The notes under the pieces are model-generated. The model had not been told where the DNA came from. It saw only the letters and a program-made list of their open reading frames with translations, and searched no databases. Shown in pieces: positions 7,375 through 28,204 of a stretch of DNA of 64,000 nucleotides. The stretch comes from Pseudomonadota bacterium (lineage in GTDB: Bacteria > Bdellovibrionota > FAC87 > UBA2466): the NCBI GenBank assembly GCA_043767805.1, contig JAYUGC010000014.1, positions 21,050 through 85,049 on the forward strand. Reading direction: 5' to 3'. Each line of letters opens with the position of its first letter. The stretch's first letter is position 1. The translations under genes were made by a program, and so were the position numbers.

Positions 7375-7463
7375 CAAATTTGTCGGTCGCGGTGCTTCCC
7401 GCAAGGCTAATGCGCCCGGCACGGCTGTTGCACAAGGGGTCGGCAATCAAACGGAGGCTTTTC

Positions 7464-8366
7464 ATGCGATTGCTTAAAGCAAAACGCCGGCTTCCCTGGC
7501 CCGCCCTTATGGTTTTGTTCCTTTTGGGTGCGTTGGGAATGTCGGTCGCCGGCTACAGTGAAACTTATAATTTCTATTTCGAGAAAAAGAAGACCGAGGG
7601 CAAAGACGAGGAAGAGGCGGCCCCCGTCGTGCCACCACCCGCTCAAGTGCCGACTCCGATCGTCATCAACAATAACAATACGAACAACGTGGGCACTCCC
7701 GCCGCGGTGACGACGAATAACAACGCCGGCGTCGCCTCGGCGCCGGTCGGCGCTCCCGCGTCGCTGCCGACCCTGGTCTCGCCAGCGCCGGCCCCGGTGG
7801 GGGAAACGTCGATCGTGACGGCGGCTTTCTCTCGCCCGCCGGAGCGATCCCCTTGGCGAATGTCTCTAACCGGGATGGCATTTTTTCAGGAGTACCCCAA
7901 GTCCTATCTGTCCAATGGCGAAAAGAAGTCCTCTACGGCATTCGATCCGACGTGGGGTGGATTGCTCTCCGTGGGTTATAACTTCAGCCGATTCTTCGCC
8001 GTCAATCTCTATGGCGGTTTAAGAGTCGCTGATGTCGACACGAAAAGAGTCCACACCCATCTTGGCGCGGATCTCGAGTTCATGCCCTTCCGAATTCCGG
8101 TGTCCGAGCGCCACGATATCTTTGAGCTTGGTTTCCTCTTGGGAGGCAGTACCGCCTTGGCGGCTAAGAATAAGAATACGCTGACGACGTTCGACTCCGC
8201 TGGGAAATCGGTTCAGATTTCCTCGGGAGAGTCTGATAACTGGGGCAGGCTCCATGTGGGCGTGCGAGTGAACATCAACATCGTGCCGGAATTCGGCATC
8301 ACGACTTCGGCTCGCGGCAATTTAGGCTCCGTCCTCATTGAGGGCGGAATCGTCGCGCGGCTCTAA
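7464..8366 (+). CDS. Secreted Asn/Thr/Pro-rich protein with predicted C-terminal beta-barrel-like domain (hypothetical)
   Basis: ATG at 7464 with RBS ACGGAGG. Signal peptide LPWPALMVLFLLGALGMSVAGYS. Low-complexity VINNNNTNNVGTPAAVTTNNNAGV and PAPAPV tracts. C-terminal region with alternating hydrophobic residues. Confidence 0.5.
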   Translation: MRLLKAKRRLPWPALMVLFLLGALGMSVAGYSETYNFYFEKKKTEGKDEEEAAPVVPPPAQVPTPIVINNNNTNNVGTPAAVTTNNNAGVASAPVGAPASLPTLVSPAPAPVGETSIVTAAFSRPPERSPWRMSLTGMAFFQEYPKSYLSNGEKKSSTAFDPTWGGLLSVGYNFSRFFAVNLYGGLRVADVDTKRVHTHLGADLEFMPFRIPVSERHDIFELGFLLGGSTALAAKNKNTLTTFDSAGKSVQISSGESDNWGRLHVGVRVNINIVPEFGITTSARGNLGSVLIEGGIVARL

Positions 8367-8382
8367 AAAGGAAAGATTATCA

Positions 8383-9015
8383 ATGAAACACATTTCATTT
8401 TTGATGGCACTTTTGGCTCTTCTGATGCTCGGCGGATGCCGGTTCGATCCCGATGGACTTCTTGGTAACGATCCGGCGGTGAAAGAAACCGAAGTACTAA
8501 GTTCCTACGACCGCGAAGAGCTCTGCAAGCAAAAGAACGTTGGCTTCGTAGTGGCGAAGGAGGTCGAGAAGTGCGTCTCTCCTTCCGACCCGGCCTTGAT
8601 TGCGCGCTTCGATTCGTATGCACCAGATACGATCCGTATCGAGCTGGAAAAAATGTCGGACGGCACCTTTCCCAAGATTAACCGCCTTCAATACAAGAAA
8701 ACGATTCCCTGGGCCTCCTCGATCCCTTCGGAAAAGCCTCGGGACTTAACCTGCAAAATCGTCGAGTCACCCAGCGCGGTCCGGAACTATGATTGCCGGC
8801 TGGAAGGTCTAACCAAAAATTCGCATGGAAATGACTTCATTTTCGATTCGATGGAGCTCGGCCATGAGACCTGCGGCTCGACCGCGCTCTACAAGGCAAA
8901 TTTCCTGTTCGATTTTTGCGAAAGTCAGGTCGATATGTCCTATACGCGCGTCGAGGTCTTCTTCAAGAGGGAGAAGCTTCCCGAGATCGATCCCTACGAA
9001 GCGCCTAAGCCCTGA
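8383..9015 (+). CDS. Lipoprotein, hypothetical
   Basis: ATG at 8383 with RBS AAAGGAAAG. MKHISFLMALLALLMLGGCRF lipobox. Confidence 0.5.
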   Translation: MKHISFLMALLALLMLGGCRFDPDGLLGNDPAVKETEVLSSYDREELCKQKNVGFVVAKEVEKCVSPSDPALIARFDSYAPDTIRIELEKMSDGTFPKINRLQYKKTIPWASSIPSEKPRDLTCKIVESPSAVRNYDCRLEGLTKNSHGNDFIFDSMELGHETCGSTALYKANFLFDFCESQVDMSYTRVEVFFKREKLPEIDPYEAPKP

Positions 9016-9073: not shown

Positions 9074-10177
9074 TTACTTAAGCTTCAGCTTGAGTTTCTT
9101 CTCGTTCGTGAGATCGCCCGAGTGGAACTTGCTGCCGGCGTAGCGAACCTTATACGTGATGATTAGGTTCTTCTTGGCCGGAACGCCAGTGACCAGGTCC
9201 ACGAAGCTGGTGACGCTGGAGTTTTTAGAGAGCGGCTTCTCGAAGCTGCCGAGATCGGTAACGGCATGGAACCAGCCGTTGTCGACGACGACCTTAACCG
9301 TCACGAACTTGTCTTCGACATTGGCGAGATCGGCGTCGAAGCCGGCGTCCGCGATGTTTACCGAGAGATTCGAGCCCGCGACCGAAGCCGTGAGGTTCAA
9401 GTCGTTGGTGGCGCGGACCTGCTTGCGGGTGCCCTGAAGCTCGATGACGGTGACGCCATTCTGCTCGGTTTTTCGCTGCGTGTACGCGTTGTAGTATGAG
9501 TTGACGTAGATCGTGTCGTCGACGCCGTCGAAAGAAATCGAGATGGATTCCTTTTCGTTGGCGAGAAGAGGAGCGTCCACGATGCGGACGTCGAACTGTC
9601 GGGTCTCGTTGTGGTGCAGCTGCTTCACCGGAACCGTGACCCAGCCCCAGACCGTCTTGTAGCCGCACTGGCCTTCGGTGAGGTAACCGAGGTTCGTCAT
9701 GTTCTCTTTCTTGAACGTGACCAAAACTTCGTAAGAGAAGCCGGTGTTGTAGCGATCGTCCGCGTCCTGGATGCGGCTCTTGAACTCGCTCCAAGAACGG
9801 GGCTTGTTCGAGAAGGTGCCGTCGTCGATGAGGCGCTTCGCCGTGGAGACTCCCACCCCTTTGATGGCGGCGGCGAGGCGAGAGGGCTTCTCGGCTTTCG
9901 GAACGTTGAAAAACTCTTTCCAATCCCCTTTCGTACCGTCGCCCTGTTGATCGCCTTCGCAATCCCAGACCTGCTCGGCCACGAATTTCTTTTCCGTGGT
10001 AATGCGGTAAATGGACGAAGTGAGGCCGAACGCCTGACGGGCTTCTCCCTTGAGATCCTTACCGGTGCGCTCCAAATGTTTCGTGACCGTGGTGCCTTCG
10101 AAGCTTGCGCCTAGCGCGAGACTGGAGACGAACGCCGTCACCGCCGTAAATCTGACTAACCAAGAAACGTTACGCAT
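9074..10177 (-). CDS. Secreted hypothetical protein
   Basis: 367-aa ORF. N-terminus MRNVSWLVRFTAVTAFVSSLALGAS is signal-like. RBS GGAGGA upstream on the minus strand. Confidence 0.5.
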   Translation of the reverse strand: MRNVSWLVRFTAVTAFVSSLALGASFEGTTVTKHLERTGKDLKGEARQAFGLTSSIYRITTEKKFVAEQVWDCEGDQQGDGTKGDWKEFFNVPKAEKPSRLAAAIKGVGVSTAKRLIDDGTFSNKPRSWSEFKSRIQDADDRYNTGFSYEVLVTFKKENMTNLGYLTEGQCGYKTVWGWVTVPVKQLHHNETRQFDVRIVDAPLLANEKESISISFDGVDDTIYVNSYYNAYTQRKTEQNGVTVIELQGTRKQVRATNDLNLTASVAGSNLSVNIADAGFDADLANVEDKFVTVKVVVDNGWFHAVTDLGSFEKPLSKNSSVTSFVDLVTGVPAKKNLIITYKVRYAGSKFHSGDLTNEKKLKLKLK

Positions 10178-11253: not shown

Positions 11254-12060
11254 TCAGGCAGCCTGGGAGGGGCTCTGGCCGGGGCGCTCGATCGATGAAT
11301 CCGGGTAAAAAATCGCATTCGTATCGGGGGTTTCGGTCCGCATCCAGCGATCCCAGAACGTGAAATAGAGGCCGTAGTTTCCGCGAAAGCGGGCGTGGTG
11401 GAGGCTGTGGTGGGTGGCATTGATGATCTGCCGCCCGAAGGAAGAGGTCTCAAATCGCCTCGGGTACATCTCATACCCCAAGTGATTGATGACCCCGAGG
11501 ACGGTCATCCCCATGAGGAAAACGAGCAGAACGGCGAGGTGGGTCGGCACGAGCCAGACCAGCCCGGGGAGGACGATTGCCTGAATGAGGGCTTCCCACG
11601 GATGAAAAGAGAACGCGGCCCAAGGGGTGGGGTTGTGCGATTCGTGGTGAACGAGATGCACGCGCCGAAATAGCGCCGGGTGATGGATCCAGCGGTGAGT
11701 CCAATAAAAATACGTTTCGTGAAGGAGCATTAGACACGGAAGACTCAAGAGGAGCCACGCCCAGCCGTACTCGTCCGGTTTCAAGTAGATCCGCAAATAA
11801 CCTAAGTTCCAGGCGTGGAGAAGGACCGCGCCCGACACCGCGAAAATCGCGGAGGTCACGAGTGACCACCCGATCTCTTTTTGCATCCTTTCCTTCGGCG
11901 CGTTTTGCGCGCGCAGCTTTCTCGCCGAGGGAACCCCGCGCTTATAGAAGAGCCAGTAGAAGGCGCCCGCGAAGCAAAAATAGCGAGCCGTCAGGATGGT
12001 GAAAAGCACCATCGTGGTCTCCAGAAAGCCGGGCAGCTCGAATGGCAAAGGCGAAGGCAT
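11254..12060 (-). CDS. Fatty acid hydroxylase / sterol desaturase superfamily membrane protein
   Basis: Histidine boxes HRWIHH, HLVHHESH, HHSLHH. Multiple TM segments. Confidence 0.75.
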   Translation of the reverse strand: MPSPLPFELPGFLETTMVLFTILTARYFCFAGAFYWLFYKRGVPSARKLRAQNAPKERMQKEIGWSLVTSAIFAVSGAVLLHAWNLGYLRIYLKPDEYGWAWLLLSLPCLMLLHETYFYWTHRWIHHPALFRRVHLVHHESHNPTPWAAFSFHPWEALIQAIVLPGLVWLVPTHLAVLLVFLMGMTVLGVINHLGYEMYPRRFETSSFGRQIINATHHSLHHARFRGNYGLYFTFWDRWMRTETPDTNAIFYPDSSIERPGQSPSQAA

Positions 12061-12117
12061 ACGTTTTACTTATCGGCATAAAAGCCCGGCGAGTGCAGCG
12101 GGGGCAACGCGAGGCGT

Positions 12118-13413
12118 CTATTTTGCGAGGTACCCTTTGAGCTGAACGTAGACCCGGCTTCCCGCTTGAAAAGCCCCGAACTGACTGCGCGCCCCTCCGA
12201 GGAGCAAGTCGGTACCGAACATGAGCTCGAACTGCTGGGAGGTCGGAATGGTGTACTGCAAACGCGAAAGCGTACTGCCGTCGTGTATCGCCCAGCTCAC
12301 AATCGCGTCCAAGCTTTGTTCGCGGTAAATCGGCGCTTTCACATTGGCCGAGAGGAGCTCGCGGTTTTTCGGTGTCGTGGAGGCCGCGTTCCAATGCGGA
12401 ATGCCTTGGTAGGCGAACTGAATCGCCACGCGCCAGGGAAGCCAGCCCGTGTACTCCGCTTCGGAGGCGACGGTGACTTCGTCTCCCGTGTAAAAGGAGA
12501 GGCCCGTCGAATCGAACTTCTGAAACGCCTTGCCTTTCGTAAATAGGCTCTCCCAGCGCACCAGCCAGCTCGAATAATCCTTGGTGAAGGTGAGCCCGAG
12601 GGAGCCCACTCGACTATGGCTCGCGATGAGATCGAGCCCCGCCGGGCCGGGCGCGGAAGTGTAAACGGGCTGCCTGTCGAAATAAGTGAAGAAGAAGAAG
12701 CCGAGATCGTACCCCTGAAGTAGGGTCGTCATCCTTACGCCCACCTCTCCATCCCCAATGGAGAATTTGCCTTGGGGATTATCGATGAGCCGGACAGGCG
12801 TGGTCGGGAAGAGATTTTTCCAGGGCGAAAAATCCCCGTCCACTCCCGGAACGAGATTGAAGAACGGCTTCGGCGCGAAAAGAAATTGGATGGACGCGCC
12901 TTTGAGAAAAAACACCGTGTTCAGCATCGGCATCATGAGCCGCTGAGCGGTGAGATCTCTCAAGCCGAAGTCGCGCAGGTCTTTGGGATTGATTAGGTCG
13001 GCGTAATAAAAACCGAAGGCCTCGCCCCAGACCACTTGCTGATTGCCCAGTTTGACGAGGAGCCGCCGGGTTTTCGCCTGAAGATAAAAATCGCGGAGTC
13101 TCAGCTCCGCGGACTCGTCGTGACGGACTTGCGGGCCGTAGCGGTTGTCATTGACGGCGAACGCCCCTTCGGCGTAAGCGCGAAGGCCAACCACCGCCAT
13201 CCAGTCGGGATCGAACGTGAGTGTCTGCTCGGCATCGAGAATGTGGCGGTGAGAGGCGAGATCCCGCGGCGCTTTCGCGTGATAGGCAAGGCGTGACTCG
13301 GCCGTGATCTTGTAGCTCGTCGAAAAGCCCCATCTTGCCTGGGCCGAGGCCGAAGCCAGGGCGGCGGCGAGCGAGAGACTACGGCAGAGATTCTTTGTTG
13401 AAGAAGCTGTCAT
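12118..13413 (-). CDS. Secreted protein, probable outer-membrane protein (hypothetical; DUF1302-like is a guess)
   Basis: Signal peptide MTASSTKNLCRSLSLAAALASASAQA from the internal ATG at 13413. 430-aa mature region rich in alternating aromatic residues. Start choice is uncertain; the ORF extends to 13476. Confidence 0.45.
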   Translation of the reverse strand: MTASSTKNLCRSLSLAAALASASAQARWGFSTSYKITAESRLAYHAKAPRDLASHRHILDAEQTLTFDPDWMAVVGLRAYAEGAFAVNDNRYGPQVRHDESAELRLRDFYLQAKTRRLLVKLGNQQVVWGEAFGFYYADLINPKDLRDFGLRDLTAQRLMMPMLNTVFFLKGASIQFLFAPKPFFNLVPGVDGDFSPWKNLFPTTPVRLIDNPQGKFSIGDGEVGVRMTTLLQGYDLGFFFFTYFDRQPVYTSAPGPAGLDLIASHSRVGSLGLTFTKDYSSWLVRWESLFTKGKAFQKFDSTGLSFYTGDEVTVASEAEYTGWLPWRVAIQFAYQGIPHWNAASTTPKNRELLSANVKAPIYREQSLDAIVSWAIHDGSTLSRLQYTIPTSQQFELMFGTDLLLGGARSQFGAFQAGSRVYVQLKGYLAK

Positions 13414-14110
13414 CCAGCTTCTCCCGCTGGTAGTTGCTGTATCTGAGGTTGGAGCCCCGGCTCGTCTGCACTGCATCCTTGATCACCACGCGCGAGAGAA
13501 TTTCCCGATCGAGCGCCTTCATGGGCATCGAGAACTCACCGGTCTTGAGAAGCTTGCCCGAGAGCGCGAAGAAGCCCGCGCGGAAAGGGCGATAGGTCGC
13601 CGGATCTACGAGCAGCTCGATGCGGCGGTAGGTGACATCGGGACGTTTCGCCGCGAGATTCAGTTTCAGGTAGCTCTTCCCGTCGACCGTCGCCATGCCT
13701 TTTTTCGAAGCTTTGTAGTCGACGTGGAAGCGGACGCGGGCGATGTCGCCGTTACTGACTTCGCCGGTCAAGCGCTGCTGAAAGCTCACGCGGGTCGGGC
13801 GCTTGATGCTGGGAAGATAGAGCCAAAGATCGTTGTCCCGCATGAGGAGCTTTCTGCCTTTTAAGCGCTCGGGCGCGGTGGTCTCGATGCGGGCCAGGTG
13901 ATCGCCCTTGGCGAAAACCCGGTACTCGGTCTCGCGCACGACAGATTTGTCCTCCACGTCTTCGACGGTGACCGTGAAGGAGAAGTCGCCGCCCGGCGTG
14001 CGCATATCGTCCACCCGGCGGAGGATTTCATCCGCGTCCGGCCTCGCGGTGGGCGGTTTAGCGGCAAATGAAGTTGATGCGACGAGACAAAGCGCGAGAA
14101 TCCATTTCAT
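13379..14110 (-). CDS. LolA-like outer-membrane lipoprotein-sorting/carrier family protein
   Basis: Signal peptide MKWILALCLVASTSFAA. About 240 aa. Resembles LolA-like proteins (PF17131-type) commonly encoded beside FtsX/ABC exporters. Family assignment from memory. Confidence 0.55.
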   Translation of the reverse strand: MKWILALCLVASTSFAAKPPTARPDADEILRRVDDMRTPGGDFSFTVTVEDVEDKSVVRETEYRVFAKGDHLARIETTAPERLKGRKLLMRDNDLWLYLPSIKRPTRVSFQQRLTGEVSNGDIARVRFHVDYKASKKGMATVDGKSYLKLNLAAKRPDVTYRRIELLVDPATYRPFRAGFFALSGKLLKTGEFSMPMKALDREILSRVVIKDAVQTSRGSNLRYSNYQREKLDDSFFNKESLP

Positions 14111-14164
14111 CCAGATAGTTTAACCGTACCTTTACGGAGCGCTAACCGCGCTCCGTCATACGCT

Positions 14165-14761
14165 TTAGAACCACGCGGAGAGGGGCGGGAGGTCCGGCTT
14201 GTGGACCATGAGGAAGAAGATGATCAAGAGGGGTGCGAAGCCCAGGAAGTTGATGATCATCCGCCGCCACAGGAGCTTCTTCAGCTCCGCCGGTAAGACT
14301 TCGCTCCCTTTGGGCATCTCCGCGAAGAGGCGCTTCACCTTATGCTGATTGGGAATGTCCGCCACGATCCACACGAGCCCCGAGAGCAGGAAGAGGAGAA
14401 ACGCCAGAGAAAGCCAGCCCATGCTCCAGACGCCTCCCAGAATAGTGCCAAGCATGATGCCCGACATCACCGAAAAGATGATGAGCGGCGCTGTGAAGAC
14501 GGCGTCGAGCCAAAGTACGGTGCGGTAAGTGTGCTCGACGATAATCGGGTTATCAGAGGTGAGACTTCTCAGCTCCCAGAGGGTGCCGATGACGGTGTTC
14601 GCAAAGAAAAGCGTCACGCACAAGATGTGAACGAACTTCACGTGCAAGTAGAGCTCGGGCCGCTCCAGCATGGACGTAAACGCGCGGGGGAAAAGAAGGC
14701 CGGCGAGCAGTAAGAACGCCATCAAACCGACATTAAAAATGAGAATCCGGCTCGTCTTCAT
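14165..14761 (-). CDS. DUF2269-family integral membrane protein
   Basis: 198 aa with 4-5 TM helices. Pattern RPELYLHVKFVHILCVTLFFANTVIGTLWE resembles DUF2269. Confidence 0.5.
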   Translation of the reverse strand: MKTSRILIFNVGLMAFLLLAGLLFPRAFTSMLERPELYLHVKFVHILCVTLFFANTVIGTLWELRSLTSDNPIIVEHTYRTVLWLDAVFTAPLIIFSVMSGIMLGTILGGVWSMGWLSLAFLLFLLSGLVWIVADIPNQHKVKRLFAEMPKGSEVLPAELKKLLWRRMIINFLGFAPLLIIFFLMVHKPDLPPLSAWF

Positions 14762-15525
14762 CGGTTCAAGGCATCCACCAGATACGCGATATCGCCGCGG
14801 TGATAGTAAACCTTATCGGGGGCGCGGCTAAAGAACGGTCCCTTTACGCGGACGTCTTTCAAGGCCGACCCTTCGATGGCGTGAAATCTCGCCGAGGTAA
14901 AACGGCTGTTGGTATTCACGAGATCGAAGGTTTTTCCTTCATTGAAGAAGGAGATGTCGTTGAAAGCGAGATAGTCGTCGGAAAGCCGAATCGTCGCCGT
15001 CATATCACTCAAGGGCTGATTGAGGGTAAAGCCCTCAAAGGCGATCTCGAGCTTGTCGCGGCCAAGCTCATACTTCAGCGGTACGAGCTTTCCGCACCCA
15101 TAAATGAAAATCACCATCCGCTCGGCCATTTCACAGATTCGCCCGACGAGGCTCGGCTTTTCGTCCAAGGACACCAAGGGTGAGCCACTGAAAACGAGAA
15201 TGCCTTTTCGGCCTTTCGGATCGGTCACGAAGGTATTTATCTCGCACCGGGCGCGGCGGATGTGAGCGAGCTCGGACTTCGGGTACTTGATGAGGTACAG
15301 GTTGTAGCTCACCCAAAACTCCGGAACGCAATCCTCGTCGGTAAAACGGACTTTTTGGGGCATGAAGCCAGGGGGCAAGCACTCGCGAACGGCGTCCGCC
15401 TCCTCGGGAGAGAGCTTGAAGTTCACGAAGAGGGGATCGGTCGTCTCCAGGGCGAAAAACGTCTTGAGCCCCAGGCCGAGCTCCATGAACTTGAAGATGA
15501 GACGTTTCAAGAAAAACATCTTCAT
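14758..15525 (-). CDS. Hypothetical protein (operon member)
   Basis: 255-aa ORF with stop/start overlaps to both neighbours. No family recognised. Confidence 0.5.
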   Translation of the reverse strand: MKMFFLKRLIFKFMELGLGLKTFFALETTDPLFVNFKLSPEEADAVRECLPPGFMPQKVRFTDEDCVPEFWVSYNLYLIKYPKSELAHIRRARCEINTFVTDPKGRKGILVFSGSPLVSLDEKPSLVGRICEMAERMVIFIYGCGKLVPLKYELGRDKLEIAFEGFTLNQPLSDMTATIRLSDDYLAFNDISFFNEGKTFDLVNTNSRFTSARFHAIEGSALKDVRVKGPFFSRAPDKVYYHRGDIAYLVDALNR

Positions 15526-15965
15526 CCCATCTTGAGGGCGAGCTTATATAGCCGGCCGAAGAGCGGAATCACCCCGATGGACTCCATGGGGTCGTAGTAC
15601 TCGCGCTGGTAGATGACTTTTCCGTTCTCGACCTGGGCGTGCACGAGGCCATGGATGGTCATCTCGAACCAGGTGAAACGGATCTTCAGGCTAATGGTCC
15701 ATTTCCAGACGACGAGCTCCGGCGAGTCGACGAGGAGAGCGAAGTGAAACTTGTCGTTGGCGGCGCGCGGCACGTACTTCGCGAGCATCTTCAAGACTTC
15801 CGCCCGGCCATGCCTCTCGTGCACGGGGTCCACGTAATGGACGTCGTCGGCCAGCACTTCGCCCATCAACGCGACGTACTCGTCGAAACGGCGCGCGGGC
15901 AGAAGGACTTTGGAAACGTACTCGACCCGCTTGCCTACGGTATCGACATGGTGCGGAAAACTCAT
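15522..15965 (-). CDS. NTF2-like / SnoaL-like (ketosteroid-isomerase fold) protein
   Basis: 147 aa. Typical NTF2-like length and pattern (VDTVGKRVEYV...DDVHYVDP...NGKVIYQREYYDP). Confidence 0.5.
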   Translation of the reverse strand: MSFPHHVDTVGKRVEYVSKVLLPARRFDEYVALMGEVLADDVHYVDPVHERHGRAEVLKMLAKYVPRAANDKFHFALLVDSPELVVWKWTISLKIRFTWFEMTIHGLVHAQVENGKVIYQREYYDPMESIGVIPLFGRLYKLALKMG

Positions 15966-15974
15966 CCGCCCAAC

Positions 15975-17201
15975 TTAGACGACATTTCTCCGGAGGGCAT
16001 CCGAGATTTCGAGCCGGGCGGCTCGCCAGGCGGAAATCAGGGCCGCGGCGGTCGCCGCGAAGAGGGACAGAGCCGTAGCGCCCAGGAAAGCGGCCAGAAA
16101 GAGGTCCACGTGCACGACGATGAAAGTCGTCGCCCCCGGCATGACGATCTTTATCCCCAAGGCGTTCAAGGTCGCGGCGAGGGCCGCGCCGAAGACGAGC
16201 CCAATCAGAGAGCCGAGAGCGCCCAGGATGAAGCCTTCCCGCAAGAATTGCCGGATGACGCTGCCTTGGGTTTCTCCCAAGGCGCGGATCGTTCCGATTT
16301 CGCCCGTGCGCTCGAAGACCGACATGCCGATGGTATTTGAGATCGCGCAAAGGGTGAGCACGCCGATGATGAGCGCGATGAGCAAGTTCTGCACGCGCAA
16401 GAAACCGGAAATCTGATTGTAGAGTTTCGCGACGTCGGTCCAGAGCTTCAGCTGCACGCCCGGATGTTCGGCCGCGAGCTTCGCCTGGAAGGCCCCGCCG
16501 ATGGAGGCGGTAAGCGGGGTCGCGTGGAGGCCGACCAAGATTTGCTCGACGTCCGTGGTGTCTAGAAGCGCCTGGGTCGAGGACAGCGGCAAGTGAAACG
16601 TGAGATCGTCCACTTCGGCGATGCCCGTCTGGAAGAGCCCCGCCACTTCGACGTCTTGGGCGTTGATGACGCCGTCAAACGTGTTGGCGATGAGGGTCAG
16701 AGAATCTCCGGTCTTTGCGCCGATGCGCTTCGCGAGTCCCTTCCCCAGAATAACCTGGAAGGGGGCGTCGACGGTGAGGCCGTGGCCTTCGGTGAAAATC
16801 AGGCCGTCCTGGCGATCCTTTTCAAGCGCCGGATCGAAGCTGATGCCGCGCGCGCTCACCGACTGATCCTTCGTGCTCACCAAACCGTAGAAGGAGAGCC
16901 GTCCCGCCGCATATTTCACCCCGGGAGTTGCGTTCAAGTCCGCGAGGATTTTCGGATAATCCTTCAAGAGGCCTTCTTTCGGCTTCTTGACTTCGCTTTC
17001 CCAAAATTTCGCGTTGGCGATTTGGAGATGCGACGTCTGGGTGCGGATGGTCGTTTCTCTTAAAGAATCGACGAGGTTTCTGGTAAAGCCCTCAAAAATG
17101 AGAATGGAAGTGACGCCGGAGGCGATCATGAAGAGGTTCAGGGCCGTGCGCCGGCGGTTTCTGAAAATATTGCGGAACGCGAGACTCCAAAGCAACTTCA
17201 T
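15975..17201 (-). CDS. ABC transporter permease, FtsX/LolCE/MacB-like
   Basis: 408 aa. N-terminal TM (FRNIFRNRRRTALNLFMIASGV), large periplasmic domain, then three C-terminal TM helices of the FtsX-like fold. Confidence 0.8.
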   Translation of the reverse strand: MKLLWSLAFRNIFRNRRRTALNLFMIASGVTSILIFEGFTRNLVDSLRETTIRTQTSHLQIANAKFWESEVKKPKEGLLKDYPKILADLNATPGVKYAAGRLSFYGLVSTKDQSVSARGISFDPALEKDRQDGLIFTEGHGLTVDAPFQVILGKGLAKRIGAKTGDSLTLIANTFDGVINAQDVEVAGLFQTGIAEVDDLTFHLPLSSTQALLDTTDVEQILVGLHATPLTASIGGAFQAKLAAEHPGVQLKLWTDVAKLYNQISGFLRVQNLLIALIIGVLTLCAISNTIGMSVFERTGEIGTIRALGETQGSVIRQFLREGFILGALGSLIGLVFGAALAATLNALGIKIVMPGATTFIVVHVDLFLAAFLGATALSLFAATAAALISAWRAARLEISDALRRNVV

Positions 17202-17920
17202 GCGGCCTGCCTTTCGAGAGCGGAGGTTACGGAGCCGTCACAGAGACGGACGCCGTCGGTCGCGCGGGCGAGCACCAGGGGATCGTGGCTCGCGATGACG
17301 ATGGTGAGGTTCTCGTGGGTGCGCAGGCCGTCTAAAAGCGTGAGAATCTCTTTGGTCGTCGCTTGGTCGAGGTTCGCGGTGGGCTCGTCGGCCAATATCA
17401 CGCTCGGCTTTTTCACGAGCGCGCGCGCGATGGCGACTCGCTGGCGCTGTCCCCCGCTCATGTCGCCTGGCTTATGAGGCCCGAACTTTTCGAGGCCGAC
17501 TTTGGTCAGCGCTTCCTGAGCGCGCGCCCGGCGTTCCGCGGCTCCCACACCCAAGAGAAGGAGCGGGTACTCCACGTTTTCCAGCGCGGTCAGCACCGGA
17601 AGCAAATTGAAAGTCTGAAAGATGAATCCGATGCGCTCGGCCCGAAGGCGGGCTTGGTCGCGCTGGTTGAGGGTGCCCAGCTCCTGACCGCCAATGAGCA
17701 CGCGCCCCGAGGTGGGCCGATCGATGCCGCCCATCAGATTGAGCAGCGTACTCTTGCCGCTGCCGGAGCTTCCGGCGAGCGCGTAGAAGGACCCCGTGGT
17801 CACCGAGAGTGACACGTTCTTCACAGCGGTCACGGTCATCTTGTTTAAACGGTACTCTCGGCAAACGCCCTCGACACTAATCGGAGTGTTGCCCGGAAAC
17901 GGAAGAATTTTGGCAGTCAT
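17198..17920 (-). CDS. ABC transporter ATP-binding protein (LolD/MacB-NBD-like)
   Basis: Walker A GSSGSGKST, ABC signature LSGGQRQRVAIARAL, Walker B ILADEPT. Start taken at the internal ATG (cat at 17918-17920, MTAKILPF...) because the 5' extension is Pro/Arg-rich and overlaps the upstream gene. Confidence 0.8.
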   Translation of the reverse strand: MTAKILPFPGNTPISVEGVCREYRLNKMTVTAVKNVSLSVTTGSFYALAGSSGSGKSTLLNLMGGIDRPTSGRVLIGGQELGTLNQRDQARLRAERIGFIFQTFNLLPVLTALENVEYPLLLLGVGAAERRARAQEALTKVGLEKFGPHKPGDMSGGQRQRVAIARALVKKPSVILADEPTANLDQATTKEILTLLDGLRTHENLTIVIASHDPLVLARATDGVRLCDGSVTSALERQAA

Positions 17921-17973
17921 ACGCCTTACTTTTCGGCCGTTTGGCCGGAAAAGCTGAGGGAAAGAACGCTGTG

Positions 17974-19197
17974 TCAGAAGAAGCAGTGGCCGAGGCCGCG
18001 GTAGGTGGGGGCGCGGCCCACGAGAGTCCCGTTTCTGAGGAGGAGATAGTCGGGGAAACGCTCTGCAATTTCCCCGGCTTTGGCGGGGCGGCAAAACACG
18101 GGATCGCCGAGCGCGAGGCCATCTGCCGCCGGGCCTCGCAGCGGTGTTTGCACTTCACCGAAGCCTTCGAGCGAAAGGGGGGCGAGCTCCCCGGGGAGAA
18201 AGACGGACGGCTGTTTCTCGGGGCCCAACGCGCCGCTCGCGATGAAGCCGCCGCTCTGACAGGTAACGACGCCAGGCTCGGGACGGCGAGCGACCGGGAG
18301 CGCGAAGGCAAAGGCCGGCGTGGAGGCATTGCCTTCGAAGTAGTCGAAGATTTGCGACTGTAAAATCCCGGAGCCCACGGTGACTTCCGTCAAAACGGTT
18401 TCTTCGAGCGCGCCTTGAAAGGAGCCGGAGCCTCCGCCGTTAAAAAAATCTAGAACGGTTCCGCGGCTTTTGAGAAACGTGGCGATTTCCGCCCGCCGCC
18501 TTCGAATGCCTCTCCGAGAAAGAACTTTCATCGCCCGGCGAGCGAGATTGGAGACGGCCGCGCCCGGAACCCTATCGGGCACGCCGGCGACCTGCGCTTC
18601 GTACGCCATCACGCCGGTCAAGCGCACGCGGTCGCTCGCCAGAATCCGGTCGTGCAGGCGCGTGAAGCCCGCGAGATCCCGCACGGGAGAACGTTGCACG
18701 CCGATATGAAGCGAGCCAAACGCACGGAACGAAACATCGGCTTCGATACAGACGTTCAGGCGAGCGCCTTTCGAAACGGCTTGCAGCACCGTCTCGATTC
18801 TCTCAACGTGCTCCACCGAGTCGATGACGAGGCTCACTTTTCGTCCGCGAAGAGAAAGACTGTGAAGGGCCTCGATATCGACCGCTTGGGCGGAAGGGTA
18901 AGCGACCATCAAATCGTCGAAGCCGAGATCTCCAAGGAACGCGGCTTCTCGGGCCGAGTAACACATCAGGCCCTGAAACGTGGGCGAGCCCGCGGCCAGA
19001 ATCACTCGCAAGAGATCCGGCACTCGCACGGATTTCGTGGCGAGCCGCACTTTCTTTCCGGCTTTCTGCGCCCAGTCCGCGAATCGTCGCGTATTGGCCT
19101 CGACCAGATCCAGGTCGACCACCATCGCGGGCAGTGGCTCGTCTTTAAGGAGGGCCTTCAGCCGACCGTAATCCCAGGCCTTGGGCTCATTCGCCAT
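17974..19197 (-). CDS. Fold-type III PLP enzyme, alanine-racemase-N-domain / D-serine-deaminase-like (DSD1 family)
   Basis: 407 aa. Alr N-terminal-like TIM-barrel pattern with conserved Lys (RLATKSVRVPDL). Resembles low-specificity D-threonine aldolase / D-Ser dehydratase-like proteins. Confidence 0.55.
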   Translation of the reverse strand: MANEPKAWDYGRLKALLKDEPLPAMVVDLDLVEANTRRFADWAQKAGKKVRLATKSVRVPDLLRVILAAGSPTFQGLMCYSAREAAFLGDLGFDDLMVAYPSAQAVDIEALHSLSLRGRKVSLVIDSVEHVERIETVLQAVSKGARLNVCIEADVSFRAFGSLHIGVQRSPVRDLAGFTRLHDRILASDRVRLTGVMAYEAQVAGVPDRVPGAAVSNLARRAMKVLSRRGIRRRRAEIATFLKSRGTVLDFFNGGGSGSFQGALEETVLTEVTVGSGILQSQIFDYFEGNASTPAFAFALPVARRPEPGVVTCQSGGFIASGALGPEKQPSVFLPGELAPLSLEGFGEVQTPLRGPAADGLALGDPVFCRPAKAGEIAERFPDYLLLRNGTLVGRAPTYRGLGHCFF

Positions 19198-20677
19198 GAT
19201 CGCTCCCGCATTTTTGCCCGTGAGAATCGAGCCGGAACGCTATCGGTAAGAGACTTAGGAAACGGCCCGGCCCTTCTTGAAAGAGGGCGAGGGTCAGCTC
19301 GCGAAAGAGCCGGTACTTTTCTCGCGTGTAAGGAAACCAATTCGCCTCGAACTTGCGATGGCTTTTGTCGAACAAAACGGATTTCTGATTGGTCATCTCT
19401 CGCAAGCCCGCCGCGCCTTTAGTGCGCCCGAAGCCGCTTGAGCCCACGCCGCCAAAGGGAAGGGCCGGATTGCCCTCGGTGAGCATGACGTTATTGACGG
19501 AGACGTTGCCCACTTTAAGGGCGGCGACCAGGCGATTCGCCCGCTTTGAATCTTTCGTCCAAACGCTCGCCGACAAGCCAAAGGGCGAGTCGTTCGCGAG
19601 GCCGACGACTTCCGCTTCTTTATCGAACGGGACGAGAGGCAGCACGGGACCGAACGTCTCCTGACGCAGCAGAGCACAGTCGTTCGGAACGTTTTCCAAA
19701 ATCAAAGGCGGGATCGCTTTCGAGACCCCATCCCAGCTTTCTCCGGTGAGAAGGCGCGCCCCGCGAGCCTTGGCCTCGTCGATGTGCTTTTTGACGGTGG
19801 CGACTTGAAAATCGGTCGTCATGCGGCCGAGATCCACCGCGGTATCGCGGCCCGGTTTTTGGACGAGCTTCGCCGCCCGAGTCAGCAGGCGCTTCTTGAA
19901 CTCCTCGAAGGCCGGGCGCTCCACGTACAGTCTCTCCACCGAAGTGCACGATTGACCGAGATTCGTGAGGCCTCCCCACAGGGCTCCCGCCGCGGCTCGA
20001 TCGAGATCCGCGTCGGCGAAAACGATCATGGCGTCTTTGCCTCCAAGCTCGAGGGTCACCGGAATCAAAAGAGGCGCGGCCTGGGCCAGCACCTTTTTAC
20101 CGGTGGCGACGCTGCCCGTAAAAACGATGCGTTCCGGCGCCGAGGCAATGAGGTGCGAGGCGGTCTGCCCGTCACCGTAGATAATCTGAATCCAGTTTGA
20201 GGCGATACCCGCTTGCACGAAGAGGCCTTCGAGAAGCCCTTCGAGCGGAGTCCATTCGGAGGGCTTGAAGACGACGCTATTGCCCGCGAGAAAAGCCGAC
20301 ATCATGGGTACGAGGCCCAGGTAGAAGGGATAGTTCCACGGAGAAATCACTAGGACGGTGCCGAGCGGATCGTAGCGAAGGCGCGAGCGCTTGCCGAAAA
20401 GCGCGATGGGAGTCCGGATCTTTTCCTCAGCGAGGATCTTCGGGCCTTCCCCTTCCAGAAAATGCAGATAGTCGAGTGTCGAGAAGATTTCCGAGACGAG
20501 AGCGTCGGTGCGCGGCTTTCCGGTGTCGTTTGAAATGCGCTCCACGATTTCATCGAGCCGGCCCAGAATGGCGCGCTTGAGATTGCCACAGCGTTGCGCT
20601 CGAGCCGCGAGCGTGAGGCCCGCAACTTCGGCTGCTGCACCCCGCGCGCGCTCTCGGATGTCTTGCGTGGGCGTCAT
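19187..20677 (-). CDS. Aldehyde dehydrogenase family protein
   Basis: ISPWNYPF, catalytic Glu box LELGGKD, catalytic Cys GQSCTSVERLYV. Confidence 0.85.
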   Translation of the reverse strand: MTPTQDIRERARGAAAEVAGLTLAARAQRCGNLKRAILGRLDEIVERISNDTGKPRTDALVSEIFSTLDYLHFLEGEGPKILAEEKIRTPIALFGKRSRLRYDPLGTVLVISPWNYPFYLGLVPMMSAFLAGNSVVFKPSEWTPLEGLLEGLFVQAGIASNWIQIIYGDGQTASHLIASAPERIVFTGSVATGKKVLAQAAPLLIPVTLELGGKDAMIVFADADLDRAAAGALWGGLTNLGQSCTSVERLYVERPAFEEFKKRLLTRAAKLVQKPGRDTAVDLGRMTTDFQVATVKKHIDEAKARGARLLTGESWDGVSKAIPPLILENVPNDCALLRQETFGPVLPLVPFDKEAEVVGLANDSPFGLSASVWTKDSKRANRLVAALKVGNVSVNNVMLTEGNPALPFGGVGSSGFGRTKGAAGLREMTNQKSVLFDKSHRKFEANWFPYTREKYRLFRELTLALFQEGPGRFLSLLPIAFRLDSHGQKCGSDHGE

Positions 20678-21051
20678 GGAGCGGTCTCCCGTTGAATGTG
20701 CGTGTCCCAGCCGAGGCGCTTGCGAATGGCTGGGTCAGAGTAATAAAGCGTGTAGAGAAACCCCTTCACACCCAGATCGAGCTGTCTGAGGAGCGAGCCC
20801 ACGGGATCGGGAAAGCGAGAGGCGTGGCCCGCGAGCCAAAAGAGCGCCGCGATGGCCCAACTGGGCAGCCAAGCAAAAAGCTCGGCGAGATCGACGAGCT
20901 TTTTGCGATCGCCCCCGGGTAAATAGGCGAGCATGCGATCGACTTCTCGAATGAGACCGCTTTGCGAGAAAGACGGAAGTCCTTCCGTTCCCGGCACGAG
21001 AAGATCGCCGGCTTTCTCCATTCCGCGTGTCGCTTTGGGAGTGAGGATCAT
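20674..21051 (-). CDS. Small hypothetical protein (putative accessory subunit of the GMC oxidoreductase)
   Basis: 125 aa from the internal ATG that overlaps the GMC stop as ATGA. The longer ORF upstream would overlap the GMC gene. Confidence 0.45.
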   Translation of the reverse strand: MILTPKATRGMEKAGDLLVPGTEGLPSFSQSGLIREVDRMLAYLPGGDRKKLVDLAELFAWLPSWAIAALFWLAGHASRFPDPVGSLLRQLDLGVKGFLYTLYYSDPAIRKRLGWDTHIQRETAP

Positions 21052-22430
21052 TTGATTACCTCCGCGGCGGCCCGAAGGGACAAAGCTAAAATGGTGAGGG
21101 ATGGGTTTAAGCCAGGGGCACTCGGAAAGACGGAGGAATCGGCGGAGTAGACGTGCTTTTCGCCGTGGAGTCTGAAGTCGGCGCCGACCACAGACGTTTT
21201 CGGATCTCTCCCCAGCGCGCATCCACCCATCAGATGAAGCCCGATGGTTACGCGGCCGGGGAGAATCTGCCGGGCGCCGGTCGACCGAAAAATGCGGGAG
21301 ATGGCGTTCATGCCGGCGGCTCGCCTGCGCAAATCTTCCGCGTTCCAGTTTTTATCGACGACCGTAGCGCCTCCCGGGCCAACTCGAATCTGACCGGCGT
21401 TCGTGTCTCGCACGGCCACTTCGATGCACGCGAAATGGCGAAGGCGAGTCATCATCGTCTGATGGGCTTTGCCAGCTTGGGGCAAGAGCATCGCGAGGCC
21501 CACGGGCGGCGCGAAAACATTTTCGAGTTTGAAGCCTTGGCGGCGAAACCCCGGGTCATCGGATTTCATCGTCTGAAAAGATCCCCGAAAGGCATCGACG
21601 GGCTCGTCGTAGAGCGCGAGCACCATCTCTTGCGGGTGGGTGTAGAAGCCCGTGCCGGTCGCGGGAAGTTTATCCGCGTACCCCGACTGCAAGAGCAACT
21701 TGCTATTGCCGATGGCGCCGCCCGCAAGAATGAGTCTCCGGCCCGAAAAGTGGGCGAGCGTCCCGTCTTTCAAGCGGACGTGCACTTCGGCGCCGTCGTC
21801 ATCGGAGCGCACGCCAAGCACTTCGGTTTCCGCGTAGAGCTCTAGTCCTGCTTCGAGCGCGTGCTTGAGCGTCGTGACGGGGGTGCTTTGCTTGCTGTCC
21901 AGCGGACAGCCTTGCAGGCACTCGATGCAATCGTTGCCTTCCTCGTTCTTACAATCCTTCTGAGCGCGGCGGAGGGCGGCCGCTTGATACCCGTTCCTGC
22001 GGAATCCCTCGTCGAAAATGCGCGCGTTCCGGTTTCGCTTTGAGCTTGGGATCGTTTGGAGCGAAAGCTGGGCTTCCGCTTTCTCGTACCAGGGGGCCAT
22101 TTCGCGCGGAGAAAAGAGAGAGGTGCCAGAAAGAGCTTCCCACTCATCCAAAGCGAGAGCATCGAAGCGATCGGCCAGCGCCTGGTTGACGATGGTGCCG
22201 CCGCCGACGGCTTTGGGCCGGAGGAGACCGAGGTCGGCCCGCCGGTTCAACTCGATTCCGCCCGCCCAATAGAGCTGGCTACTCGCGTCGATTTCCTCGC
22301 GGGGGTAGGTGGCCGCGGTGAAATGCTTGCCCGCTTCAAACAGCGCGCATTTGAGGCCCGCGCGACAAAGCTCTTGAGCAAAGGCGGAGCCCGAAACCCC
22401 GGACCCCACGATAAGGGCATCATAGCGCAC
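21048..22430 (-). CDS. GMC-family FAD-dependent oxidoreductase (choline/cholesterol-oxidase-like)
   Basis: N-terminal Rossmann YDALIVGSGVSGSAFAQELCRAGLKCALFEAG. About 460 aa. Typical GMC C-terminal domain. Confidence 0.8.
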   Translation of the reverse strand: MRYDALIVGSGVSGSAFAQELCRAGLKCALFEAGKHFTAATYPREEIDASSQLYWAGGIELNRRADLGLLRPKAVGGGTIVNQALADRFDALALDEWEALSGTSLFSPREMAPWYEKAEAQLSLQTIPSSKRNRNARIFDEGFRRNGYQAAALRRAQKDCKNEEGNDCIECLQGCPLDSKQSTPVTTLKHALEAGLELYAETEVLGVRSDDDGAEVHVRLKDGTLAHFSGRRLILAGGAIGNSKLLLQSGYADKLPATGTGFYTHPQEMVLALYDEPVDAFRGSFQTMKSDDPGFRRQGFKLENVFAPPVGLAMLLPQAGKAHQTMMTRLRHFACIEVAVRDTNAGQIRVGPGGATVVDKNWNAEDLRRRAAGMNAISRIFRSTGARQILPGRVTIGLHLMGGCALGRDPKTSVVGADFRLHGEKHVYSADSSVFPSAPGLNPSLTILALSLRAAAEVIK

Positions 22431-22448: not shown

Positions 22449-22663
22449 TAAAAGGTGTGTGGATACTTTTAGCTAGGCAATTGCCTTTTGGAAATCAAGA
22501 GCCAATAGGGCGCACGCGCCGTTATTTTGGCTAAAAGTATCCACACACCTTTTAGCCCCCCAAAAGGGCCCTGGATACTTTTAGCCAGCGCGGGCATGCC
22601 GCTTGCCCGTCTAAAAGTGTCCACACACTTTTTAGACGCTTAATGTGTCCAGACACCTTTTAG
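22449..22663. repeat. Five copies (both orientations) of a 24-26 bp dyad-symmetric motif CTAAAAGGTGTGTGGATACTTTTAGC in a 229-bp intergenic region
   Basis: Copies at 22449-22474 (+), 22530-22556 (inverted), 22561-22586 (+, degenerate), 22611-22635 (inverted) and 22645-22663 (inverted, partial). Also a GGCAATTGCC palindrome at 22477-22486. Confidence 0.8.
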
Positions 22664-23928
22664 AAGTCGGCGAGGGTGATGTTGGCGAGATTGATCTTGT
22701 TGGCGAAGACGGAATAGCAGAGGTAGGCCGCGAGGCACTTGCGGTTCTCGAGCCACGGCGGTTCGTACAGCGGATTTTTGATGAAGCCAGTCGCGAAGAA
22801 CGGCTCGAGCTGAACGATGTCGGCGAGAGTGAATCGCCCGGCGAAGAGATGCTCGGCGTAGTGAAACTTATTGGCTTGAATCGCCTTGCGCAAAAACGTG
22901 TGGGTGAAGATGAGGCCGCGCAGGTAGACGCAGTCCTTTGTAAACACCACGCCGCCCTTGGGATTGCCGCCGCGAAAAATGCGCGCGGCCGACTGGAAAC
23001 TTTCGGTATCTTCCTGTCCCGCCGCGAGAAAGTACTTAAACACTTCGATGAAGTCGGCGCCGTCCAAAGCCATCTGAATCCCGTGAATGCGCAAGGCAAT
23101 GCGCTCCAGACGGTTCAGGTCGATGGAAGAGGTGAAAAGCTCGGCGAAGGTGGCGATGCCTTCTTGAGTCGCCGTGGTGCGGGGCGATCCGAGCCCGAGA
23201 CTTGGCAAATTTTCCTGCGCCATCCCGTTCAAGGCGGTCAGCATGTGGACGTAGCCTTCATGATGGACGAGCTGGGGCAAATCATGCGCGGAAAAGCAGG
23301 TCGCGTCTCTAAGGCGCACCCGCTTCGGGCCCGCCGCGGCTTTGGAGGCGAGCTTCGGATCGACGATAATCTCGATCTTGTGATGCTTAAAGAAGGGAAC
23401 GAGCTCTTTTCTGAGAGTCTCCGCCGCTTGCTCCGCGGGGATGCAATATTCCCCGTCGTTTATCTTGTAGGCCGAGACAAAATCGCGCGTGCTCTCGATG
23501 AAGTAGTCGGCGGCTTGCAAGCTCGAGAGCTGATTGAGGCCGATGGCGTCGCTCGGTTTTCCGTAGAGCTCGATGGAGAGCTCGGTGAAAAGAGGCGTGC
23601 CCACGGCTCCGATGAGGCGCGCCGCCGTTACGTACGACTCGGCCGTCTGATAAATGTAGTTTCCGATGGGGTGGCGTTGATCCGCCTCCGCCATGATCGC
23701 TTTCAGCTCTTTGATGTTTTCCCGGTGATCGGGCGGGGTGTACTCCACCCGCGGAATCCTGGGCTTTCCGGCGCGCCAGGATTTCACGAAAGCGGTGCTG
23801 CGCTCCTCGTCCCACGAGAGCGTCGTCAGAATCTTGATGGGCTTTGCGGCCGCCACCAATTTGCGATCGAGCTCGGTGAAGCGGGCGAGTTGCTTGGCGG
23901 CTTTTTCTTTGGGAAGGGCGGAAGTCAC
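22660..23928 (-). CDS. DUF1704-domain protein (QEGLA-motif family, putative Tyr/Phe-carboxypeptidase-like)
   Basis: 422 aa. Contains TTATQEGIATFAE, matching the QEG[LI]A signature of TIGR02421/DUF1704. Confidence 0.6.
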   Translation of the reverse strand: MTSALPKEKAAKQLARFTELDRKLVAAAKPIKILTTLSWDEERSTAFVKSWRAGKPRIPRVEYTPPDHRENIKELKAIMAEADQRHPIGNYIYQTAESYVTAARLIGAVGTPLFTELSIELYGKPSDAIGLNQLSSLQAADYFIESTRDFVSAYKINDGEYCIPAEQAAETLRKELVPFFKHHKIEIIVDPKLASKAAAGPKRVRLRDATCFSAHDLPQLVHHEGYVHMLTALNGMAQENLPSLGLGSPRTTATQEGIATFAELFTSSIDLNRLERIALRIHGIQMALDGADFIEVFKYFLAAGQEDTESFQSAARIFRGGNPKGGVVFTKDCVYLRGLIFTHTFLRKAIQANKFHYAEHLFAGRFTLADIVQLEPFFATGFIKNPLYEPPWLENRKCLAAYLCYSVFANKINLANITLADF

Positions 23929-28132: not shown

Positions 28133-28204
28133 TGGGGCGTAGAAAAGCGGTAATTCACTGGATTTTGATTCCAGCATTCCCAGGTTCGAATCCTGGCGCC
28201 CCAA
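28133..28204 (+). tRNA. tRNA-Gln (anticodon UUG)
   Basis: Cloverleaf: acceptor TGGGGCG/CGCCCCA, anticodon stem CTGGA/TCCAG with loop TTTTGAT, T-arm CCAGGTTCGAATCCTGG. Closely matches E. coli tRNA-Gln(UUG). Confidence 0.9.

Follow-up and report, generated by a model that had tools for sequence, protein, structure and literature searches.

A tightly packed twelve-gene row in a Bdellovibrionota genome is probably a lineage-specific packing of separately inherited modules

In a 64,000-nucleotide (nt) stretch of a Bdellovibrionota genome (GenBank assembly GCA_043767805.1, contig JAYUGC010000014.1; hereafter the window), positions 11254-22430 hold a row of twelve co-directional open reading frames, all on the minus strand. 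An earlier note, made from the sequence alone, had proposed that this row encodes one system in which oxidoreductases modify a sterol-like or hydroxylated lipid that is then carried to the outer membrane along a Lol-like route. Here we compare the row with about 110 related loci and conclude that it is probably a lineage-specific packing, side by side, of modules that are inherited separately. A single sterol-like modification and export system is unsupported, because the components have separate inheritance and the GMC-family flavoenzyme is not a cholesterol-type or choline-type enzyme. This leaves three conserved, uncharacterised modules (A, B and C) and one lone hydroxylase (D), packed together in one lineage, and no result points to a substrate common to all four. 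The twelve genes, in the direction in which they are read, are as follows.

21048-22430, minus strand: module A, gene 1, GMC-family flavin adenine dinucleotide (FAD) dehydrogenase, 460 amino acids (aa); GMC_oxred_N 85 bits, GMC_oxred_C 63 bits.
20674-21051, minus strand: module A, gene 2, small protein here called the adaptor, 125 aa, with a GDxxxPG...PxFS motif.
19187-20677, minus strand: module A, gene 3, NAD(P)-dependent aldehyde dehydrogenase (ALDH), 496 aa; Aldedh 373 bits.
17974-19197, minus strand: module A, gene 4, fold-type III pyridoxal phosphate (PLP) enzyme, D-threonine-aldolase-like or D-serine-dehydratase-like, 407 aa; Ala_racemase_N 32 bits against a cut-off of 24.
17198-17920, minus strand: module B, gene 1, LolD/MacB-like ATP-binding cassette (ABC) ATPase, 240 aa; ABC_tran 126 bits.
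15975-17201, minus strand: module B, gene 2, FtsX/MacB-type permease with a periplasmic MacB_PCD domain, 408 aa; FtsX 58 bits, MacB_PCD 37 bits.
15522-15965, minus strand: module C, gene 1, SnoaL_2 (NTF2-like) protein, 147 aa; SnoaL_2 37 bits.
14758-15525, minus strand: module C, gene 2, protein with an acetoacetate-decarboxylase-like fold, 255 aa, of a Bdellovibrionota-specific family.
14165-14761, minus strand: module C, gene 3, DUF2269 integral membrane protein, 198 aa, about five hydrophobic segments; DUF2269 73 bits.
13379-14110, minus strand: module B, gene 3, periplasmic LolA-like carrier (PF17131, 'TP_0789-like'), 243 aa; LolA_like 124 bits against a cut-off of 30.
12118-13413, minus strand: module B, gene 4, DUF1302-like outer-membrane protein (OMP) with a signal peptide, 431 aa.
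11254-12060, minus strand: module D, FA_hydroxylase (sterol-desaturase-family) di-iron membrane enzyme, 268 aa; FA_hydroxylase 97 bits against a cut-off of 31.

That the row exists as described was borne out by genes called independently on the source contig, which is a Logan metagenome assembly: these are the same genes with the same starts, including a 240-aa ABC ATPase starting at 17920 and a 431-aa OMP. Annotation of each open reading frame with hidden Markov models likewise recovered from Pfam all of the families named before, the DUF1302 match being weak. None of the twelve proteins, all of which were scanned, reaches an NCBIfam equivalog cut-off, and the 125-aa and 255-aa proteins are the only members of the row with neither a Pfam nor an NCBIfam family. 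The junctions between the genes are less uniform than the at least eleven genes with ATGA overlaps that had been reported. Four-nucleotide ATGA overlaps occur at five of the 11 junctions (GMC/adaptor and adaptor/ALDH, hence on both sides of the adaptor gene, ABC/FtsX, SnoaL_2/255-aa and 255-aa/DUF2269), and two further junctions have longer overlaps (ALDH/PLP, 11 nt; LolA-like/OMP, 35 nt). The other four are gaps, of 53 nt between the PLP and ABC genes, 9 nt between FtsX and SnoaL_2, 54 nt between DUF2269 and the LolA-like gene and, exactly as the earlier note had it, 57 nt between the OMP and FA_hydroxylase genes.

In gene order, these four gaps coincide precisely with the module borders that emerge from synteny (A|B, B|C, C|B and B|D), and every overlap lies within a module. 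Since the gaps sit at module borders and the modules are separate in more distant loci, we regard the row as a composite. The entire row was found only in close relatives, namely in the locus L005 (about 75% amino-acid identity), which also shares the flanks of the window (a MATCAP/QEGLA gene upstream, infA and FKBP downstream), and in short contigs with near-identical copies. Conservation of the block in other genomes had been named in advance as a check, and outside these close relatives the orthologous block is not conserved. The packing of modules A to D into one row is, on this reading, recent. In 80 metagenome loci from several phyla that carry module A (45-61% identity) there is no homologue of FtsX, LolA-like, OMP, SnoaL_2, 255-aa, DUF2269 or FA_hydroxylase nearby; conversely, the four genes of module B are together in six of six other Bdellovibrionota loci (L022, L023, L024, L105, L106 and L107) that have no GMC, ALDH, PLP or FA_hydroxylase gene. 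The proposed link between the oxidoreductases and the export genes is not supported. Module C was followed by tblastn of all window proteins against 20 loci with a homologue of the 255-aa protein: the trio stands alone in about 17 of them, those with long flanks lack the other nine row genes within 10 kb, and genes of other modules lie near it only in L005 (A, B and D) and L022 (B only). FA_hydroxylase was seen beside module B only in the window and L005.

Module A is a widespread, multi-phylum cassette in which an unannotated adaptor domain joins an apparently Fe-S-type (iron-sulfur) GMC enzyme, an ALDH and a putatively D-specific PLP enzyme. The GMC protein has more than 1000 relatives, the best 120 of which are 56-100% identical and come from Binatia, Acidobacteriota, 'Deltaproteobacteria' and Bdellovibrionota. 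In the 80 loci the small gene comes after the GMC gene and is itself usually followed by the ALDH gene, with the PLP gene upstream (22 loci) or downstream (8). Where the flanks are long enough (25 loci), the small gene comes after the GMC gene in 24 and the PLP gene lies beside the GMC gene in 19; the count for the ALDH gene is 12. Clustering of the neighbours in the 80 loci revealed no additional conserved partner or transporter. Those neighbours that could be annotated encode a gamma-glutamyltranspeptidase, Opp-type permeases, a Peripla_BP_6 binding protein and an M1 peptidase, and there is no lipid gene among them. All four module A proteins lack a signal peptide or transmembrane segment.

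The resemblance of the GMC enzyme to cholesterol or choline oxidases, on which the notion of a sterol-like cargo had leaned, did not survive scoring against the specific families: it reaches 76 bits with the cholesterol oxidase model CholsOxChoxAB (cut-off 850), 41 bits with the choline dehydrogenase model PRK02106 (cut-off 605) and 28 bits with betA (cut-off 732). The closest PDB sequences are a fructose dehydrogenase (7w2j) and the Burkholderia FAD-glucose dehydrogenase (6a2u), at about 18% identity, and the best fold matches of the predicted model are 8jej and 6a2u (TM-score 0.78-0.81). Fe-S sugar dehydrogenases, rather than cholesterol or choline oxidases, are thus the nearest relatives of the enzyme. 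Fructose and FAD-glucose dehydrogenases carry a 3Fe-4S cluster. In the window protein the motif C160-x7-C168-x2-C171-x3-C175 (window 21900-21955) is invariant in 15 orthologues from several phyla, and in an alignment with fructose dehydrogenase C168, C171 and C175 fall at the Cys-rich Fe-S loop of that enzyme. It should be noted that such a loop is unexpected in a cytoplasmic GMC enzyme without a cytochrome partner.

The adaptor has no match in Pfam, NCBIfam or the PDB, and a 16-sequence profile searched against PDB and Pfam gave only noise. A Gluconate_2-dh3 subunit was tried as a candidate, with a best E value of 0.22 in one of the 16 members; because the profile searches gave noise only, we do not give it that name. 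It has no RR motif of the twin-arginine translocation (Tat) type. In 23 of 36 adjacent cases, for example in L025, L028, L029, L037, L108 and L109, it is fused in frame to the N-terminus of the ALDH, giving products of 626-673 aa, and independent gene calls contain fusions of 626 and 657 aa in a Bdellovibrionota and a Binatia metagenome-assembled genome (MAG), where module A stands alone. The 125-aa protein of the window is a free-standing version of this ALDH-fused domain. The ALDH itself falls below all NCBIfam equivalog cut-offs (best PRK09407, 360 bits against 521). The PLP enzyme matches D-threonine aldolases (7dib, 4v15), a D-3-hydroxyaspartate aldolase (6qkb) and a D-serine dehydratase (3anu) in the PDB, and scores 61 bits against a cut-off of 690 for BhcC. 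Its K54 aligns with a lysine in the HAKxHK stretch of the aldolases 7dib and 4v15, which we take to be the PLP-binding residue, and its C-terminal region aligned too poorly for metal-binding His/Asp ligands to be assigned.

The four genes of module B, proposed before as a Lol/MacB-type ABC exporter with a LolA-like carrier and an OMP, proved to be a conserved unit. In the six other loci the LolA-like homologues are 44-55% identical, the DUF1302-like OMP gene follows directly in all six, and the ABC ATPase and FtsX/MacB_PCD genes lie 0-4 kb away, in three arrangements. The ABC/FtsX pair has the features of a type VII system, with an FtsX domain, a MacB-like periplasmic core and a cognate ATPase, all above Pfam cut-offs. 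The permease has hydrophobic segments at 21-39 and 273-378 and matches LolE, LolF and LolC in the PDB at about 56 bits. The carrier matches 3buu (NE2245, of the LolA superfamily) with an E value of 1e-37, and its N-terminus, MKWILALCLVASTSFA, reads directly as a Sec signal, as does that of the OMP, ...LSLAAALASASAQA, as a signal peptide; the topological signals expected of the module are all present. The DUF1302 match of the OMP (42 bits against a cut-off of 23) is weak and partial, covering only profile positions 85-378 of 541. Module B could plausibly serve as a carrier route devoted to one kind of hydrophobic cargo, but no finding connects it with the oxidoreductases.

In two loci the surroundings of module B may provide a lead to its cargo. 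In L024 (4716-7913) and L106 (6703-9934) it adjoins ThiF-like and nitroreductase-like genes, together with an FeeM-type N-acyl amino acid synthase with a PilZ domain in L024 and a UDP-glycosyltransferase in L106. In L023 (12523-14064) and L105 (12118-13617) two additional genes lie between the DUF1302-like OMP and FtsX genes, one for a 251-283-aa protein without a family and the other for a small OMP_b-brl_2 barrel.

Module C is a Bdellovibrionota-specific trio that includes a protein of acetoacetate-decarboxylase fold without the catalytic lysine. The SnoaL_2 gene (immediately upstream), the 255-aa gene and the DUF2269 gene are adjacent in 20 of 20 loci, and clustering of the neighbours in these loci gave no additional conserved partner. 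Of the earlier assignment of the first protein as ketosteroid-isomerase/NTF2-like, the NTF2-like part stands: it matches only SnoaL_2, SnoaL and LEH, all at 37 bits or less, with no NCBIfam match, and no specific ketosteroid isomerase family is among the matches, so that the likeness to that enzyme is at clan level only. The 255-aa protein has an acetoacetate decarboxylase fold and no Pfam match to that family, no Pfam domain was found among remote relatives of its family, and no invariant or nearly invariant lysine was found among 20 members when a Schiff-base lysine was sought. Uncultured Bdellovibrionota are the source of its relatives, among them MAGs of Pseudobdellovibrionaceae and Bdellovibrionaceae. 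Compared with its counterpart in L005 (10001-10759), the window protein is only 57% identical, against 73-85% for its neighbours, which reflects either faster evolution or allele replacement. In L022 (15401-16630) the DUF2269 protein has 409 aa, about twice the usual length, with an additional C-terminal region. Module D is a single gene whose product carries the His boxes HRWIHH, HLVHHESH and HHSLHH in its translation and has no PDB relative by sequence.

Several points weigh against reading the row as a side-by-side packing. The genes are tightly packed, with gaps of 57 nt at most and without convincing internal terminators or promoters, so that co-expression is likely and could reflect a role common to the clade. 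A scan of the row found no sigma-70-like site and terminator-like sites at chance level, and is uninformative on transcription units; the row is here probably transcribed as one or few units. The arrangement is, moreover, kept in L005 at about 75% amino-acid identity, and the synteny surveys covered flanks of up to 10 kb on metagenome fragments. In L022 the trio lies divergently beside ABC/FtsX, a second and different arrangement that hints at a link between B and C and is the sole such hint outside the clade of the window. As to the individual modules, the Fe-S cluster of the GMC enzyme is predicted solely from the aligned Cys motif, in a model whose predicted local distance difference test (pLDDT) score is below 50 at residues 163-186; and, although the architecture of module B is shown, its cargo and the direction of its transport, like the substrate chemistry of module A, are inferred.

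That all twelve genes form one pathway, in which a sterol-like or hydroxylated lipid is oxidised or hydroxylated and then trafficked to the outer membrane, would account for the tight co-directional packing and the gene order shared with L005, and every named family can act on hydrophobic substrates. We nevertheless consider it very unlikely, given that the modules are separate in all of the more distant genomes examined, that the GMC enzyme fails the cholesterol oxidase and choline dehydrogenase cut-offs and groups with dehydrogenases of soluble sugars, that amino-acid and peptide genes surround module A elsewhere, that its proteins all lack membrane segments, and that the flanks of the row showed no gene for sterol or hopanoid biosynthesis. 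A narrower proposal, that modules B and C co-operate in this clade, the trio making, modifying or sensing the cargo of B while A and D are unrelated passengers, draws on the position of the trio inside module B in the window and L005, on its divergent placement beside ABC/FtsX in L022 and on the inner-membrane nature of the DUF2269 protein. It is rather unlikely: around the solitary trios there is neither a transporter within 10 kb nor another recurring neighbour, and the trio is missing from module B in five of the six other loci.

A different objection is that module B is no more than housekeeping Lol lipoprotein sorting, of the LolDF type with a divergent LolA. The nearest solved permeases are indeed LolE, LolF and LolC, the ATPase is nearest to LolD and the carrier is a member of the LolA superfamily. 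However, three of the proteins score far below the Lol cut-offs (227 against 308 bits for the ATPase with LolD, TIGR02211; 100 against 362 for the permease with lolCE, TIGR02212; 16 against 112 for the carrier with true LolA, TIGR00547), the carrier belongs to PF17131 and not to the LolA family, and its constant partner is a DUF1302-like barrel, a component absent from canonical Lol systems. We accordingly judge this explanation to be quite unlikely, and retain the composite of separately inherited modules as the probable reading of the row.

A model of what each module might do can be drawn from its parts. Module A would be a cytoplasmic catabolic cassette, in which a GMC enzyme with an Fe-S-type Cys loop is coupled through the adaptor to the ALDH. 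The substrate of the GMC enzyme would be of the amino-alcohol or amino-sugar type and would be oxidised at a CH2OH or aldose carbon, the aldehyde would be passed via the adaptor to the ALDH, and the product of the two enzymes would be a D-beta-hydroxy-alpha-amino acid that the D-threonine-aldolase-like PLP enzyme could cleave or deaminate. In module B, the type VII MacB/Lol-like ABC extractor would take a hydrophobic cargo out of the inner membrane and load it onto the soluble LolA-like carrier, for delivery to the DUF1302-like outer-membrane barrel. Module C, the Bdellovibrionota-specific trio, is inserted between the two halves of module B, and module D is a single membrane hydroxylase or desaturase.

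That the modules were united in one transcription unit in this Pseudobdellovibrionaceae clade because they all process a single amphiphilic amino-diol lipid, such as a sphingoid base, is a proposal that we regard as highly improbable. If it were true, a sphingoid base from the cell's own envelope or that of its prey would be moved across the periplasm by the ABC/LolA-like/DUF1302-like route. The GMC enzyme, adaptor and ALDH would then oxidise its C1 to the acid, turning a serine-derived 2-amino-1,3-diol into a D-configured beta-hydroxy-alpha-amino acid, from which the D-threonine-aldolase-like enzyme would release glycine and a fatty aldehyde. Whether or not this holds, module A would represent a pathway of several phyla that has not been described before, its new adaptor domain linking an Fe-S flavoenzyme to an ALDH.

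The separate parts resemble known systems to differing degrees. The membrane-bound, FAD-dependent fructose and glucose dehydrogenase complexes (7w2j, 6a2u) share with module A the aligned Cys-rich loop and a small partner gene directly downstream. The row, however, has no Tat or Sec signal on the GMC protein and no cytochrome c subunit, and its small partner, often ALDH-fused, has no detectable similarity to the gamma subunit or Gluconate_2-dh3. In TRIS degradation, TaoA (GMC), TaoB (ALDH) and PLP enzymes act on an amino-polyol (PMC10848231), and the chemical logic is alike, an amino-polyol being converted to a hydroxy-amino acid that is then degraded by PLP enzymes via a D-amino acid. The likeness is one of logic only, as that pathway uses mSHMT and DsdA where module A has a D-threonine-aldolase-like fold-type III enzyme, TaoA is of the choline dehydrogenase clade and the adaptor is present only here. 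From the acetoacetate decarboxylase-like superfamily (3cmb, MppR 4jm3, Sbi00515 4zbo) the 255-aa protein differs in lacking an invariant lysine and in being always paired with SnoaL_2 and DUF2269.

With LolCDE-LolA-LolB and the type VII (MacB-type) systems, module B shares a separate ATPase, an FtsX-type permease with a MacB-like domain and a secreted carrier of the LolA superfamily, whereas it has a single permease gene, a PF17131 carrier, scores below all Lol equivalog cut-offs and, in place of the lipoprotein LolB, a 431-aa DUF1302-like outer-membrane partner. Pathway-specific LolA/LolB paralogues have been proposed for flexirubin (PMC11885536). An export cluster of the arylpolyene/flexirubin type was rejected for the row, which has no ketosynthase or acyl carrier protein gene, as was sterol or hopanoid transport of the Bst or HpnN type, since there is no resistance-nodulation-division (RND) protein. 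Clusters of the DUF1302/DUF1329/BNR/RND type are implicated in the efflux of apolar monoterpenes (AmeABCD of Castellaniella; PMC6394551) and, as a co-fitness cluster in Shewanella and Pseudomonas, in export of an envelope component (bioRxiv 10.1101/072470), and, for PP_0765/0766, in growth on fatty esters (bioRxiv 10.1101/2020.07.04.188060). They have the same pairing of a DUF1302-type OMP, a periplasmic protein of the LolA superfamily and an inner-membrane pump. Module B differs in that its pump is ABC/FtsX, not RND, its carrier PF17131, not DUF1329, and its DUF1302 match partial in a protein about 170 aa shorter; neither the window nor the related module B loci contain a DUF1329 protein, a BNR protein or an RND pump. 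In a literature search, no relevant publication turned up for TP0789, for PF17131 together with FtsX, for DUF2269 or for LolA-like ABC transporters of Bdellovibrio. Module B would thus be an ABC-driven counterpart of the DUF1302/LolA-like/RND clusters, and adds to the evidence that LolA-like carriers serve cargoes beyond housekeeping lipoproteins. More generally, the row is a caution for the reading of genomes, as a tightly packed row of overlapping genes need not be one pathway and the parts here have separate histories; modules A, B and C are now defined well enough to test.

Some further observations concern the borders and flanks of the row. At the A|B border of L005 (about 6580-7427), exactly between the PLP and ABC genes, there is an additional gene that is absent from the window; its product has a signal peptide or membrane segment and the CPBP/CAAX-protease-like motifs EEAVFRGW and FAAAHL. 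Among the spacers that were folded, only that between the DUF2269 and LolA-like genes forms a strong hairpin (z -3.0), a 9-bp GC-rich stem, ACGGAGCGC-GGUUA-GCGCUCCGU, at about 14134-14156 on the minus strand, the 66-nt spacer folding at -23 kcal/mol. The hairpin lacks a U-tail, and its sequence is not kept in L005. Positions 9074-10177 (minus strand, 367 aa) and 8338-9015 (plus strand, 225 aa) of the window encode predicted secreted proteins or lipoproteins with neither a Pfam nor an NCBIfam family. The sole Rfam or ARAGORN match in the 64-kb window is a tRNA-Gln (anticodon TTG) at 28133-28204 on the plus strand. Directly upstream of the row lies the gene for a MATCAP/QEGLA-motif (TIGR02421-like) protein (22660-23928, minus strand; 288 bits against a cut-off of 339), which is syntenic in L005 at 83% identity.

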